Origin: a virus
Lineage: Duplodnaviria; Heunggongvirae; Uroviricota; Caudoviricetes
Strand: one strand, 5' to 3'
IMG/VR virus record: IMGVR_UViG_2703718832_000007
Location: 1-33,242 of that record
Length of the DNA stretch: 33,242 nt
A program made the position numbers and the translations under genes. Positions within the stretch are counted from its first letter, which is position 1; each line of letters opens with the position of its first letter. Shown here piece after piece: positions 4,996-10,008 of this stretch. The notes beneath the pieces are model-generated. The model was not told the DNA's origin, made no database searches, and worked only from the letters and a program-made list of their open reading frames with translations.

Positions 4996-5940
4996 TCAGT
5001 AGTTATGTACTGAAGGAGGTAATTCTTTATTCTTAAGTCTCATCCATGCGGAAAGATTCGCTGGTCCGTCTGGCTCATTGATATCAACATCTCGTGTGTG
5101 ATTGATTAAAACGTCTCTCGCCATTCCGATAACATACGAGAATTCATGACCGTAGTCGTAGCATCTGCCGGAATAGTTCGATTGAACTTGTTTTAATGCC
5201 GGATACAGTTCGCGGAATAATGCCTGTGAACGGTTAGCATAATCCCATAGCCATACAAGGCTGTTTGCTTCTTTTGCAGAAAGCTCGTTTGCTTTCTTCT
5301 CTTGTTTGCCGATAAACTCGCCTTCAAGCACTACCCTGTGGATGTACTCTACGGCCAGCGGGATTTGTTCAATTGAAAGTTCATCAATGCTGTCAATACC
5401 AAAACGCTGATGAACCATATTGTATGCATCGTCATAGCGAAGTCCTTTCTTTCCTACCAGCATGTTTACTGCATCGCGTAGCGGCGTTCTTTCCTCAACA
5501 GTGGTTTTCTTGCCTTTCACATACTCGCCATGTTTGCGAATTGAAGGTAGAACTTCTGCTGTTACCCACTTGCGGAATTTGTGCGGGACCGAACCTTTAT
5601 TGACAGCATCGCGGCAGCGCAGAACCAATGTATACATACCTGATTCGCTAACAATGCTTAGATTCTGCTCACCACCAAGGGTGTAACTTAAAGTTACTCC
5701 CTTTTCATCGTCATCAAGTGCAGTAAGCGCCTTGCGTGAGTTAGTCAGGGTTAAAGCATCACAAACATCTTTTGCTACAAACCACGGCTCACCGCATTTG
5801 TTGATGACGCGGATTTCACTGTCGCCGAATTTGAAGATGGTGAAATCGTTTTGTGCCTTTGCTATACTTTTCATGTCAATATTTCCTAATCCGATTTGTT
5901 GATACCGAAGCCCTGACTGTTCCCGCAGTTGGGGCTTCAC
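4996..5940 (-). CDS. ant: Antirepressor Ant (immI region)
   Basis: 314 aa; N-terminal region [32 protein letters not shown] is Bro-N/antirepressor-like; sits directly upstream of the tailspike as P22 ant does. Confidence 0.8.
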
Positions 5941-5971: not shown

Positions 5972-6112
5972 TCACACCGTTATCCCCTCTCTCCTCAGGC
6001 TGTCCAGCACCCGTTTAATTACTTCTGCGCTGAATGAGCGACACTCTTCCTTTGCTTTTTCTTCAAGAATTTTTTCTAGCTTCTCTGGCATACGCAGTGT
6101 TTTTACCTTCAT
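5972..6112 (-). CDS. arc: Arc-like ribbon-helix-helix repressor (below the ORF-track size cutoff)
   Basis: Hand-translated 46-aa [49 protein letters not shown]; aligns with P22 Arc (FNLRWPREVLDLVRKVAEENGRSVNSEIYQRVMESFKKEG); lies between mnt and ant, oriented like ant. Confidence 0.75.
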
Positions 6113-6217
6113 TGCATCCTCCGTTGTATGTGGTACGCATACATAGTATTTAGGTACGCATTGATAGTCAATAGATACCTACATATCCTGTGGTAAAAAA
6201 TTATTCAGGATGCGCCG
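6113..6217. promoter_or_regulatory. immI divergent control region (Pant/Pmnt-like) with operator-like inverted repeat
   Basis: Intergenic region between divergent arc and mnt; contains TAGGTACGCATTGATAGTCAATAGATACCTA with inverted TAGGTA...TACCTA ends (P22 Omnt has TAGGTCC...GGACCTA ends) and a second GGTACGCAT copy. Confidence 0.5.
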
Positions 6218-6469
6218 ATGTCTGATCGTAAGTACAAAAACCCTCAAGTGAATCTGAGGCTTCCTGTAGAGATAAAGGAACGTCTTATTGAACTGGCTGA
6301 GGCTAATTCTCGTTCATTAAATGCTGAGATGGTCGCGGCACTTGAAGCGTGGACCGAAAAAAATAAACACATTCAAGCACTAGACCTTGCAACTATAGCA
6401 TCACGATTGATAGATCTTGAACGCGATGTTGAGACGCTAAAGACCATGTATGGTAAGGATGCAAAATGA
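6218..6469 (+). CDS. mnt: Mnt-like repressor (ribbon-helix-helix)
   Basis: 83 aa, the same length as P22 Mnt; VNLRLPVEIKERLIELAEANSRSLNAEMV aligns with P22 Mnt FNFRMPMEVREKLKFRAEANGRSMNSELL. Confidence 0.85.
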   Translation: MSDRKYKNPQVNLRLPVEIKERLIELAEANSRSLNAEMVAALEAWTEKNKHIQALDLATIASRLIDLERDVETLKTMYGKDAK

Positions 6470-6675
6470 ATAAAAAACAGTTTATTAAGTCAAAAACGTC
6501 AAGCAAGGAAGAGCTAGAGAAAGAGCTAAACTCCCTGAAATATGCTCTGTGTCTGGTTTACTCAAGACTGCCAATGGAAGATAAAAACGCCATTTACAAT
6601 GAAATGATTAGCAGCCTTGATTTTAACGATAGAGACCTAGCATCCCACCTCAACAGCTTCCGCGTCCCTGAGTAA
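6466..6675 (+). CDS. Hypothetical protein, start overlaps the mnt stop (ATGA)
   Basis: 69-aa ORF; the ATGA start/stop overlap suggests translational coupling with mnt; no recognisable domain. Confidence 0.4.
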   Translation: MNKKQFIKSKTSSKEELEKELNSLKYALCLVYSRLPMEDKNAIYNEMISSLDFNDRDLASHLNSFRVPE

Positions 6676-6835
6676 TTCTGTTGCGGATTTGCTTCTTGCG
6701 GTGGTTTAGGCTGGAGAGCTTGGCTTCTGCTTCTGATATTTGCGCATCTAGATCTTTAAGCTCAAGATCTGAAAGTCGCTGGTCAAGCAGGGTTTGGTTC
6801 AACTCAATATTGTTCAGACGTTCTTCTATAGTCAT
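6650..6835 (-). CDS. Hypothetical coiled-coil protein (may be spurious; convergent overlap with the 6466-6675 ORF)
   Basis: 61-aa ORF with a weak AAGG RBS; heptad-like Leu/Glu-rich sequence. Confidence 0.3.
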   Translation of the reverse strand: MTIEERLNNIELNQTLLDQRLSDLELKDLDAQISEAEAKLSSLNHRKKQIRNRITQGRGSC

Positions 6836-6860
6836 ATTGTTACCTTAGTGGGAGATTAGT

Positions 6861-7085
6861 ATGATTTCTGCTATTTTATCGGTGCTGCTAGCGTCATTAT
6901 TCATCGGAGTGGTGTTGATCTCCCCGATGCCAATAATATCAATATTATTCATCTTGATGATCGGCTGGTTGTGGCTTAAAAAGGCAAGAAACGATTATTT
7001 TTTATCCATAAGAGATAAGCAATTGGAGCTTTTCCGCTTGGGGTACACTGGCGACTTGCCATTCTTAACATACCAAAAAAAGTAA
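6861..7085 (+). CDS. Small membrane protein, two predicted transmembrane helices
   Basis: 74 aa; GGGAG RBS about 7 nt upstream; two hydrophobic stretches (ILSVLLASLFIGVVLI and IISILFILMIGWLWL); followed by a terminator. Confidence 0.5.
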   Translation: MISAILSVLLASLFIGVVLISPMPIISILFILMIGWLWLKKARNDYFLSIRDKQLELFRLGYTGDLPFLTYQKK

Positions 7086-7090
7086 TAATC

Positions 7091-7114
7091 AAGCCGGGTC
7101 ACTCCGGCTTTTTG
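7091..7114 (+). terminator. Rho-independent terminator ending the mnt-side operon
   Basis: AAGCCGG-GTCACT-CCGGCTT followed by TTTT. Confidence 0.6.
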
Positions 7115-7464
7115 ATATGTCGCTCGCAGAACTCAACAAGTCTGCTCATTAAGTAGCAGTAAGTCTCGTTGGATCTTCCTGGTTCAACATCAACACCGAC
7201 CCTTGAGCAGATATCGAATGCCATGTGAGCGCACTCATGGGCAATAGTAGATAGTTTGCCATTGAACACGCCTATCACATGCAAAACACCATTCTCGCTG
7301 CTCATTGTATGAGACGCTCCGTTGGCATCCGAGTCCTGCACGTCCACGCCAAGTTTTTGATGCAGGCGTTGCCATTCTGGAAAGTCTCTGCAAAACACAA
7401 TCGTACCGCTCTCAAAGAGCGGTACGAGCATCTTTGGTACGTTTCCAATGTTAACTTTTTTCAT
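7099..7464 (-). CDS. Hypothetical protein with an HExxH motif (possible small ImmA/IrrE-like metallopeptidase)
   Basis: 121-aa ORF with an AGGA RBS; contains IAHECAHMAFDI (H-E-x-x-H); its last codons are encoded by the terminator hairpin of the opposite strand. Confidence 0.45.
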   Translation of the reverse strand: MKKVNIGNVPKMLVPLFESGTIVFCRDFPEWQRLHQKLGVDVQDSDANGASHTMSSENGVLHVIGVFNGKLSTIAHECAHMAFDICSRVGVDVEPGRSNETYCYLMSRLVEFCERHIKKPE

Positions 7465-7494
7465 GGTATCCTGCTCAAAACTAAGGAGGTTGGT

Positions 7495-7794
7495 GTGAAG
7501 CGATGGGTTATAGGTGCATTCTGTTTTCTAATTAGTGGTCTTGCACAATCGCAAGATAAGGATCTGAAATTTGCTAACGACATGTTAGTTACAGCTAAAG
7601 TTGCTGGTATGTGTGGAACATTTAAACAAATGTTTGCTTTTCAAGAAGCAACCCAGATGCCAGGCGGAGATGAATTTATTGAACGTTTTTTGAATACGGA
7701 AATTTCTCGCCTAGGAATGTCACTTCAAGAGTTCATGAAGTTGTGCACAGATTCTATAGAGTCATACAATAAATTAAAAAGGATGTCAGAATAG
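7495..7794 (+). CDS. Small secreted/periplasmic protein with N-terminal signal peptide
   Basis: GTG start 6 nt after an AAGGAGG RBS (the longer track ORF from 7279 is in the same frame but has no RBS); N-terminus KRWVIGAFCFLISGLAQSQD is signal-peptide-like; 99 aa. Confidence 0.5.
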   Translation: MKRWVIGAFCFLISGLAQSQDKDLKFANDMLVTAKVAGMCGTFKQMFAFQEATQMPGGDEFIERFLNTEISRLGMSLQEFMKLCTDSIESYNKLKRMSE

Positions 7795-7820: not shown

Positions 7821-7889
7821 ATGGTAACAGTCGGTTGGATTATTGTTGCCCTGCTTGTTGCTCTGTGGGCAAAGAATCGTTACTACTGA
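7821..7889 (+). CDS. 22-aa hydrophobic peptide ORF ([22 protein letters not shown])
   Basis: Hand-found; GGAGG RBS 7 nt upstream of ATG; single predicted transmembrane segment; antisense overlap with the 3' end of the gp16-like gene. Confidence 0.35.
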   Translation: MVTVGWIIVALLVALWAKNRYY

Positions 7890-10008
7890 GAAAAGCGACA
7901 ATACCAACGCGGGCTAGATTTTTCTTCTCGTCCGCTGATAGCGTATTTACCCAATCCCTATATGGTTTCACTTTCTGCATTGAAGCATCCACCGATTTCC
8001 TAGAGGCTGGAGTGCTAGCGTGACTTGCGGCAATCCTTTTTGAGAGATTTTTAAAAGCCGGAGATGCTATTAATTCATCAGCGGCAGCCATTCTTGAGTT
8101 TTTACCAGAACGGAGGAGGCTAAAGAGTACCCCTGCCGTACCGGCTCCCGGCGCTCCGATGGCAGTGGTTAGCCCCTCTGCTTTAGCCACGTCTTTTCCT
8201 ATTCCATATATACGCCCAAGCATTCCCTTCTCTCCTGCGAACTGATTCATCATCCGGTCAATTTGAGAGGAGGAATACACCTTCTCGCTGCCCACCCTTT
8301 GCATGCCAGAAGCCACCTCATAGATGTTTCTCAACCTACGCGTAGCCGGATAGCCAATTGCCCGGCTCAATGCCTGCATATTTGATTTGTTTCTTGATAG
8401 ACCTCCATACCACTTAACAAATCCAGGAACACCGAGTGACTGCCCGGGAGATTTAGCGAACGTAGTGAAAGCCCTATTCATTGCGGTGGCAACAGCTGGT
8501 TGCACCATGTCATCAGGAAGATTTGAAACCAGGCGACGGAAGTCACCGCCCTTTCCTTGAGACATGTCGACGATAGCTTGCTGCAATTGCGGCACTATTC
8601 CTTTATCCAGGTCTCTGCCAAGATTTTGAATGGCGGCTGCCTGTACTGCGAATCTCTTTCTCCCGATCTCTCTAGCTAAATTCCATGTATCCTCTGCACC
8701 ATATTTGGCAGCAGCGGCTCCCTGATCTTGTATCAGTGCGCTTTCAAGAATTCCAAGGTGCCGAGCGTCGATGCCGCTATATGGCCCTTTATCCATCTCT
8801 TTGCCAAGAGCCCTTCCAACCTGCCGTCGAACTGCATCAAGAAGACCATAAGTCGGGGCGGTGTTTGGGTCTATTTGTTCCAAGGTCTTTGACAGTTGAG
8901 GATATAGCGATTTTAGTTTTTCTAGCCCACCGACATCATCTGCAATATCCTCAATGGCGTTAGTGGTATGGGAGGTATCTACGGTAGCTCTGGTTGGAAT
9001 TTTTGCTCTAATTTGATTGTATAGAGTGTCTTCTTGGCGCTTCAGGTTTGATCTTAACTCCTCATAAGAGCTTTTTACCTTTTGATTGATAAAGTCCTTA
9101 TCAACGCTCCCACCAAAATCATTAATAAATTTATCTGCCTGCTCTCCAAGCCTACTAATGGCCTCTCGCTGTGCGTGGAACAGTTTATTACCAGGGGTTG
9201 CAGCTAAAGCATTTTCAAACGCGCGGTAAGAAGGGTTGCTGGAGTACATGCCGGGAGTTAAGGCATCCTCTATCCCAAGATTGCGGGCGGCCTGTAGCAC
9301 AGAATCATCTGGTGAAACAGCTTCCGCGAGAGCATTCAAACCAGATCTGTTTCCTGTTATTGGATTCACATCTGTAGCTTTCGTTGCAACCTTCGCCATT
9401 CCACTAAGTTCAGATGCCTGAGACATTTCTGCCGATGGAGGCCTAAACCTCTTCGTAACCGCACTGGCTGCTTTACTAATCACTGGAGATGCCAATTCAG
9501 CAATTGGACCAGCGGCAGCACCTATAGTCGCCCCTGTAGTTACATTGCCACCGGTTCCGTTAGCAACAACACCACCTTCAACCGCACCAAGCCCTGCGGC
9601 GGCAGCCAGCCTTGCCGCCCCTTTCGGAACCTGAGAAATAATCCCACCACCACTAACAAATGGCGCTGCTTGTCCAACGAACTCACCAACATCTTGTGCG
9701 GTTGATGGTTTTGCCGCTAACTTCTGCTGTAGAGACTGAATTGCGGCTTGCTCTTCTGGTGTCATATCCTGAAACAGGCCAACACCTTTACCAACATCCA
9801 TCAATCCACTGAGAACGCCATACATAAAACGGTCGAAACCGTTAGCATTATTAACAACATTTTCCTGTCTGGAATTTTCCTCTGGTGAAACCAAAGGAGA
9901 TTGCTGCTGTTCTGGTTGGGAATCAAGCACAAAGCCATCAGGAAGTTGTGAGTTATCAGGCTGTTCATCCAGAACAAACCCCTCTGGTAAACCTACATTG
10001 GTTGCCAT
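7840..10008 (-). CDS. Ejection (injection) protein, P22 gp16-like
   Basis: 722-aa Ala/Gly/Gln-rich protein occupying the last position in the conserved P22 order gp7-gp20-gp16. Confidence 0.75.

Follow-up and report, generated by a model that had tools for sequence, protein, structure and literature searches.

In a P22-like prophage (Lederbergvirus), the interval that separates mnt from gene 16 is a mosaic of small-gene cassettes that are exchanged independently of one another and fall into two expression classes; it is not one system. The prophage lies in a 33,242-nucleotide (nt) stretch of viral DNA (IMG/VR record IMGVR_UViG_2703718832_000007; the window, to the whole of which all positions refer), with its late operon on the - strand and mnt on the + strand, called here the late and the prophage strand, respectively. 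The interval is the variable part of the accessory region that Villafane et al. named the 'ant moron' in 2008 (PMC2629481), between the ejection gene 16 and the immI and tailspike genes. The best explanation overall, to which we give a probability of about 0.6, joins this mosaic to two proposed functions: ORF99, an open reading frame (ORF) of 99 amino acids (aa) in the position of sieA, would be an envelope factor made by the prophage, and its divergent neighbour hkcC would be a zinc peptidase made late. The region is of a known kind, and the general picture of a hypervariable moron is unchanged; what is new is an uncharacterised cargo, ORF99, in the sieA socket.

A mosaic of exchangeable cassettes

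Gene identities, mosaic junctions, the conservation of the families and their genomic contexts were all observed directly. The gene layouts of P22, HK620 and Kapi1 agree with that of the window, in which the interval is flanked by ant, arc and mnt on one side and by a gp16 homolog on the other, a tailspike-sized ORF being also present in the late operon. Between the conserved gp16 and tailspike/immI genes, the content varies and is replaced among syntenic phages, as is proper to a moron, and it is accompanied by promoter-like and terminator elements whose activity is presumed from P22. The region was already known as a hypervariable moron with sieA, hkcC and 59a and a very high genetic flux (PMC2629481). 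Position, flanks (gp16 homolog, mnt, arc, ant and tailspike), hypervariability and mosaic structure are thus alike in the window and in the P22 ant moron, whereas the window has ORF99 in place of sieA, ORF74 in place of orf59a, and two extra genes, ORF69 and ORF61, after mnt.

A preliminary description of this DNA had placed five small ORFs between mnt and the ejection genes, in the sieA position next to immI. All five are there, the region is the P22-like accessory region, and ORF99 sits in the sieA slot, joined to it at a shared GTG. The same description had found no clear homologs for them, and this did not hold: four of the five ORFs match PHROG families and the 121-aa ORF is hkcC, although Pfam, NCBIfam and PADLOC searches with the five proteins gave no match above threshold. 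Its observations are therefore partly confirmed and, as detailed below, its interpretation is partly supported.

That interpretation took the five ORFs for one envelope-directed exclusion or defence cluster, in which the protein with the HExxH motif would be an ImmA/IrrE-like peptidase acting on a repressor, which would here be Mnt, Arc or C2. The ORFs do adjoin immI, ORF74 and ORF99 are predicted membrane or secreted proteins, and the cargo of the sieA slot is, by prediction, overwhelmingly envelope-targeted. However, co-occurrence tables show that the cassettes assort independently among prophages and, since they recombine independently, lie on both strands and belong to different transcription units, the five ORFs are not one cluster. 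Together with the evidence on the peptidase itself given below, this makes the proposal as a whole very improbable.

The features that carry the argument are the following:

7077-7497, no strand assigned: mosaic block shared with P22 and HK620 (three-way alignment; 98.3% identity to P22)
7434-7464, + strand: putative equivalent of P_sieA, placed from the AF527608 annotation by transfer of coordinates, within the 5' end of hkcC
7464-7497, + strand: putative expression adaptor, made of an extended -10-like TGGTATCCT (7464-7472), a short leader, AAGGAGG (7483-7489) and GTG (7495-7497)
7495-7794, + strand: ORF99, 99-aa predicted secreted protein; GTG start 5 nt after AAGGAGG, signal-peptide-like N-terminus
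7099-7464, - strand: hkcC, 121-aa ORF with the motif HECAH, predicted cytoplasmic mini-zincin-like protein (HExxH-x19-E)
7091-7110, both strands: bidirectional intrinsic terminator, t_mnt of P22 and tORF59A of HK620
7840-10008, - strand: gp16-type ejection protein of 722 aa, 99% identical to its Kapi1 homolog, convergent with ORF99

A putative expression socket in the sieA slot

The homology shared by the window, P22 and HK620 sets in at AAAAAGTAATAA, with the two final Lys codons of the upstream gene and its stop. It takes in the terminator, all of hkcC, the P_sieA region and the ribosome-binding site, and ends exactly after the GTG. Beyond this shared GTG, P22 continues with sieA, HK620 with hkcB and the window with ORF99. 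The P_sieA equivalent falls within the 85-bp segment that suffices for sieA function in P22, where the 85 bp upstream of sieA are enough for at least 10^7-fold exclusion (PMC10883804); the counterpart of this segment in the window (7410-7494) is about 98% identical.

Read from its sequence, the adaptor would comprise an extended -10, a leader, a ribosome-binding site and a start codon. Its 21-nt core, AAAACTAAGGAGGTTGGTGTG, is present in at least 119 IMG/VR contigs, and the ORFs that start at its GTG in IMG/VR belong to at least 12 unrelated families: SieA, three HkcB-like variants, proteins of 42, 62, 68, 75, 106, 116, 129, 140 and 149 aa, and ORF99. A crude hydropathy test found hydrophobic N-termini in 11 of 13 cargo types, with one type soluble and ORF99 just under the threshold. 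hkcC lies upstream of the adaptor in only 35 of 120 loci; elsewhere its place is taken by unrelated DNA or by a 6-codon hkcC remnant, and the part common to the loci with unrelated upstream DNA is about 35 nt long, from TGGTATCCTG to AAAACTAAGGAGGTTGGTGTG through the GTG. No match to the adaptor was found in a one-genome-per-species set of genome contigs. The 2008 account of the ant moron (PMC2629481) describes neither the start-codon-precise adaptor nor its range of cargo.

In many of the IMG/VR loci that lack hkcC (L009-L127, for example L010, L019 and L021), the first six codons of the gene, MKKVNI, survive joined to unrelated DNA, and this remnant before the adaptor looks like a deletion or recombination scar.

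ORF99, a candidate periplasmic factor

ORF99 matches phrog_19844. Its family comprises 10 clusters from Salmonella and E. coli, with homologs down to about 50% identity and 26 invariant residues, C40 and C84 among them, and in the Kapi1 record the authors annotate a signal peptide over residues 1-22 of the homolog. AF2 models the mature part as a bundle of three helices (pLDDT 89). The signal peptide, the two conserved cysteines and the other cargo with which it is grouped all speak for a prophage-made periplasmic protein, and ORF99 is most likely, by sequence and by analogy, a prophage-expressed periplasmic exclusion or conversion factor. The most distant homolog (P0184) has a context that is not P22-like and carries no adaptor. 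An identity of ORF99 with HkcB of HK620 was rejected, as the two gave no alignment at E <= 100; they are different cargo in the same slot.

ORF99 shares with sieA of P22 the upstream 85 bp, the ribosome-binding site, the GTG, the orientation convergent with gene 16 and, by prediction, envelope targeting; its place, like that of sieA, is between genes 16 and 9, and it starts from the GTG that follows the P_sieA block. In spite of these similarities, the proteins are different: (i) by BLASTP, neither ORF99 nor ORF74 resembles SieA above the level of chance, and the FxRYPxEAxxFNK motif is missing. (ii) ORF99 is predicted to be a soluble secreted protein of 99 aa with three helices, whereas SieA is a polytopic inner-membrane protein of 164 aa. 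(iii) SieA has several hydrophobic segments, while ORF99 has only the signal-like one at its N-terminus and ORF74 a single stretch of 40 residues.

How could such a protein exclude phages? Escape from SieA has been mapped to mutations in the C-terminal parts of gp16 and gp20 (PMC10883804). In the IMG/VR loci, where gp16 was typed by its last 150 residues (7840-8290 in the window), the cargo type agrees with the C-terminal type of the adjacent gp16 in 23/23 loci with SieA, 15/15 with HkcB and 6/6 with ORF99, the sample being redundant. This almost one-to-one correlation may reflect the linkage of adjacent genes, or could reflect co-adaptation. Tentatively, the P_sieA-type element of about 35 nt may be a start-codon-precise expression socket through which P22-like prophages exchange a large repertoire of mostly uncharacterised envelope proteins. 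ORF99 might then be a new kind of cargo, soluble and periplasmic, which would block the conduit that gp20 and gp16 form across the periplasm for DNA delivery by phages of the Kapi1/HK620 type, and which would be matched to the type of C-terminus that the adjoining gp16 carries. If the other cargo of the adaptor are also exclusion or envelope-protection factors, the slot would be a catalogue of at least 12 unrelated small proteins, which could be tested against one ejection-protein machinery by the single-copy assay established for sieA.

It is also possible, if somewhat doubtful, that ORF99 acts in lysogenic conversion and not in superinfection exclusion, shielding the envelope from non-phage threats such as the effectors of type VI secretion systems (T6SS), colicins or host factors. 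In a diverged relative, a Rap1a-like periplasmic immunity protein (T6SS immunity, PF18602) with a signal peptide occupies the same divergent position beside hkcC, and this neighbour makes protection from non-phage threats a live alternative for ORF99. The cargo families are, moreover, very heterogeneous, and ORF99 resembles no known Sie protein. However, the only characterised cargo of this adaptor is SieA (PMC10883804), and the cargo tracks the C-terminal type of the adjacent gp16, which is the region targeted by SieA (PMC10883804), even though physical linkage could explain this.

A positional parallel is found in phage BTP1, in which a prophage-expressed antisense RNA, STnc6030, gives exclusion at the junction of gene 16 and the tailspike gene (PMC7067206). 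Like the proposed role of ORF99, this is an exclusion-type locus transcribed against the late operon of a P22-like phage, but its product is an RNA rather than a protein, and BTP1 has no ant moron. Because BTP1 also has no adaptor, STnc6030 is a positional analogue only.

hkcC, a probable late zinc peptidase

The 121-aa ORF is identical at 99.2% over 121/121 residues both to HkcC of HK620 (GenBank AAK28904, annotated 'unknown') and to an intact ORF of P22, and it matches phrog_1365 over the whole profile (E 2.6e-39). It is the same gene as in HK620, with the same neighbours (terminator and divergent cargo), and nothing of substance differs; the divergent cargo there is hkcB and the convergent ORF is orf59a-like. 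In P22 the ORF is intact (L001 2523-2900 in P22-pbi, AF527608; also in BK000583 and AB426868), yet no coding sequence is annotated: at this place the three reference records carry only the promoter 'P sieA' and the terminator 't mnt'. The older P22 record AF217253 has only 71% identity over the ORF. Other records, that of UAB_Phi20 among them, name hkcC, with its function 'unknown' (PMC4837284), and literature searches found no functional study of hkcC or of phrog_1365.

A profile search of 1.84 billion representative proteins returned 455 relatives (E <= 0.001), nearly all of them stand-alone proteins of 110-130 aa; no fused Pfam domains were found in the longer members. An alignment of 75 diverse members has just four invariant positions, H76, E77, H80 and E100, and the window protein has all of them. 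The Glu stands 20 residues after the second His of HExxH, in an NE motif, and HExxH-x19-E with this motif is what we take to be the signature of thermolysin-type gluzincins. In the AF2 model (pLDDT 88, pTM 0.82), the topology is beta-beta-alpha-beta-beta-alpha-alpha; the HExxH residues belong to helix 71-89, and E100 is the first residue of the following helix (100-116), in the predicted place of a third ligand. With thermolysin-type gluzincins and 'minigluzincins' the protein would thus share the HExxH, the Glu in the NE motif, and the sequence of a beta-sheet, an active-site helix and a Glu helix, but it is far smaller than the classical members, its metal site is a prediction, and it has no significant match to a solved peptidase: against PDB sequences nothing was found below E 0.1, the best Foldseek hit had an E of 0.097, and no significant similarity to a solved zincin was seen in sequence or in structure. 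The faint sub-threshold matches around HExxH are to metallopeptidases only (myroilysin, astacins and SPRTN, with SprT-like in 2/75 members). By signature and modelled topology, the protein is zincin-like, without being a member of a defined peptidase family, and we consider it most likely, on sequence and model, to be a small late-expressed zinc peptidase.

The contexts of the family are those of late genes. Within the ant moron of P22-like phages, hkcC belongs to the late strand. ST64T/L has a paralog with 37% identity and mEp021 another, both between the lysis genes and the small terminase gene, while in siphovirus prophages of Klebsiella and Rosenbergiella and from metagenomes the gene has the tail chaperone region on one side and the tape-measure gene on the other. 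Its orientation is that of the structural genes in 7/7 distant contexts. No repressor gene was found in the hkcC-family contexts examined, which argues against a repressor-cleaving protease.

These data bear on the ImmA/IrrE-like peptidase of the preliminary description. HkcC and ImmA/IrrE are alike in being small HExxH proteins of mobile elements with a downstream Glu. However, hkcC has no Pfam match at E <= 1, 0/75 relatives match Peptidase_M78 (PF06114) at E <= 0.01, nor was any other curated match seen, and the gene is neither adjacent to nor co-transcribed with a helix-turn-helix repressor. It is antisense to the mnt operon, its relatives are found between lysis and terminase genes or in the tail operons of siphoviruses, away from any repressor, and phage L/ST64T retains an hkcC paralog even though it lacks a functional immI (PMC8022706). 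The identification as an ImmA/IrrE-like protease was consequently not borne out.

In 5/7 of the distant contexts hkcC is faced by a converging 59-aa gene that is homologous to orf59a of P22 (60-79% identical, weakly YjzC-like), and among 69 P22-like loci the convergent neighbour is orf59a in 55 and ORF74 in 11, the window included. The two genes could form a functional pair in which a late HkcC peptidase removes or processes a partner expressed by the prophage (orf59a, or here ORF74) at the lytic switch. The pair converges around one terminator in those 55 loci, recurs in tail operons of siphoviruses and in metagenome contigs, with an hkcC of only 42-60% identity, and places its members on opposite expression strands. 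Nonetheless, we regard it as unlikely: orf59a is absent beside the paralogs of ST64T/L and mEp021 and from two further loci (L217 and L218), the window has an unrelated membrane ORF where orf59a would be, and joint mobility could reflect one moron unit sharing a terminator. hkcC is a conserved mini zinc-peptidase-like gene, unannotated in the reference genome of P22, a phage studied as well as almost any, and it recurs in late operons across tailed phages that are not related. Both the hkcC/orf59a module and the start-codon-precise socket are worthwhile leads for phage biologists.

In the siphovirus prophages of Klebsiella oxytoca and Rosenbergiella, the convergent hkcC/orf59a pair is flanked by the tail-tube/YdaY genes and the tape-measure gene; in metagenome contigs it adjoins a PhageMetallopep (PF18894) gene (pair positions: L128 5001-5563, L130 5001-5556, L216 3501-4057 and L131 544-1131). 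A relationship of the hkcC family with this neighbouring PhageMetallopep protein was rejected, the two being unrelated by hhalign (probability 0.9%). In diverged P22-like prophages, the cargo around hkcC is a Rap1a-like signal-peptide protein, a ClpP-like protease or a 139-aa lipoprotein (L215 209-562; L218 2849-3385 and 4111-4530).

A model of two opposed expression classes

We infer the pattern of expression, the location of ORF99 and the functions of ORF99 and hkcC as follows. In the prophage, Pmnt would drive a + strand operon of mnt, ORF69 and ORF74 that ends at the terminator at 7091-7110, and ORF99 would be a separate + strand unit, its GTG fused to a promoter, leader and ribosome-binding site element of the P_sieA type. 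Its product would be exported to the periplasm as a small three-helix protein, where it would exclude incoming P22-like phages at the stage of periplasmic DNA delivery or provide another kind of protective lysogenic conversion. On the late strand, read-through from gene 16 would pass antisense to ORF99 and then through hkcC, the terminator (antiterminated), ORF61, arc, ant and the tailspike gene. hkcC and ORF61 have no room for promoters of their own and would be transcribed only by this antiterminated late read-through towards the tailspike gene, hkcC yielding a cytoplasmic protein of about 120 aa with a gluzincin-type metal site (HExxH plus Glu).

The starts of hkcC and ORF99 diverge with a gap of 30 bp, much as the preliminary description had it. 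No promoter-like site was found on the hkcC strand of this gap. Because the gap to a variable cargo is so short and holds no such site, hkcC is probably read only by antiterminated late transcription. As had also been noticed, the 121-aa ORF runs into the terminator hairpin of the opposite strand: its last four codons lie within the 3' arm of the hairpin at 7091-7110. This hairpin scores as a terminator on both strands; the record of P22-pbi annotates a terminator here and that of HK620 a bidirectional one, and the sequence is identical in the window, P22 and HK620.

Several points weigh against this model. (i) ORF99 matches no known exclusion protein and no PDB structure, its model having no Foldseek match in the PDB, and a three-helix bundle says little about function. 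(ii) Promoter activity is attributed to TGGTATCCT on sequence grounds, and the P22 records put the putative P_sieA slightly upstream, at 7434-7464. (iii) Kapi1 has ORF99 without the TGGTATCCT -10 element. (iv) mnt was undetected in Kapi1 lysogens (PMC12922286), so the mnt-ORF69-ORF74 operon may be weakly expressed. (v) A strong - strand hairpin inside hkcC (7427-7401) could limit the expression of the gene. (vi) The case for ORF74 as a coding sequence, made of a ribosome-binding site, hydrophobicity and conservative variants, is weakly supported. In its favour, Kapi1 genes 059-062 are not listed among those undetected by RNA-seq of the lysogen (PMC12922286), and both the exclusion RNA of BTP1 and the Rap1a-like protein beside hkcC in a diverged relative fit it.

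In Kapi1 (L002 3125-3190), the distance from the ribosome-binding site to the GTG of the ORF99 homolog is lengthened by a duplication of 7 nt, GGTTGGT, and a 60-aa signal-peptide ORF and a hairpin come before it; with this duplication and without the -10 element, the homolog indicates that expression routes can differ. The hairpin inside hkcC (7401-7427, - strand), 37 nt past the ATG, has a 12-bp stem with 7 GC pairs and is followed by a T-rich tract; it scores as a - strand terminator, and both P22 and HK620 conserve it. Its effect could be to confine hkcC expression to late transcription that is antiterminated; alternatively, it could be part of the sieA promoter region.

The remaining small genes

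The interval and its immI side also hold the following genes:

4996-5940, - strand: ant
5972-6112, - strand: arc
6218-6469, + strand: mnt, Arc/Mnt-type repressor (Pfam Arc PF03869, E 3e-10), first gene of the prophage-strand operon
6466-6675, + strand: ORF69, 69-aa soluble protein, its ATG overlapping the mnt stop (ATGA 6466-6469)
6650-6835, - strand: ORF61, 61-aa coiled-coil protein, its 3' end overlapping ORF69 by 26 nt
6861-7085, + strand: ORF74, 74-aa predicted small membrane protein of probable coding status, last gene before the terminator, in the orf59a slot of P22 and HK620

ORF69 is, on its sequence, translationally coupled to mnt, as first described, through the ATGA overlap. It matches phrog_16466 (E 5e-51), is identical in Kapi1 and 98.6% identical in Emek, and no hydrophobic segment was found in it. 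The last 12 residues of Mnt (ETLKTMYGKDAK; 6434-6469) are common to the Mnt of Kapi1, the rest of the two proteins being different. Because these 12 residues and ORF69 match Kapi1 and the remainder does not, a mosaic junction lies inside mnt. ORF61 matches phrog_7586 (E 3e-44) and has the ribosome-binding site AAGG 7 nt before its ATG. An assignment to XhlA (PF10779) was rejected, since the score is below the gathering threshold (14.1 bits vs 34.7, E 0.056) and there is no membrane segment. ORF74 has the ribosome-binding site GGGAG and a single hydrophobic stretch, residues 1-40, that reads as two membrane helices; it is an orphan, for which a set of 5.8 billion proteins holds no more than 4 clusters, all near-identical.

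Selection was assessed from synonymous:nonsynonymous counts in all six frames, at sites variable among related loci. The own-frame counts are 12:3 for ORF69, 25:11 for ORF61 and 30:8 for hkcC. For all three, four of the five alternative frames are strongly skewed to nonsynonymous changes, and the codon-phased opposite-strand frame is intermediate, as expected (10:5, 16:20 and 26:12, respectively). ORF69, ORF61 and the 121-aa ORF are thus real genes under purifying selection. ORF74 has only two variable DNA sites, so that the test says nothing about it; its protein variants are few, the most divergent differing mostly by conservative changes, and its coding status is probable, not established.

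A recombination hot spot might also leave most of the small ORFs as neutral mosaic debris, functionless in this prophage. The very high genetic flux of the region (PMC2629481), the 6-codon hkcC remnant in many loci and the lack of informative variation in the orphan ORF74 would all be consistent with this. Yet ORF69, ORF61 and hkcC are under purifying selection, the homologs of ORF99 are conserved with invariant residues, the ribosome-binding sites are intact and the hkcC family counts 455 clusters, which together make debris a quite improbable account.

Divergent Pmnt/Pant-like promoters are found at 6161-6189 (+ strand) and 6171-6143 (- strand), and the Pmnt-like promoter and the sieA-slot element (7467-7472) have an identical -10 hexamer, TATCCT. 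In some E. coli prophages a different ORF is coupled to mnt, so that the position directly after this gene is a variable slot as well; in E. coli L4_E1441 (L007 1767-2084) it is an ORF of 105 aa in the place of ORF69. Finally, the starts of ORF61 and ORF74 are divergent and 25 nt apart (6835-6865), with their ribosome-binding sites back to back, an arrangement that mirrors that of hkcC and ORF99, and a promoter-like TTGTTA-17-TATGAT (6837-6865) overlaps the start of ORF74.

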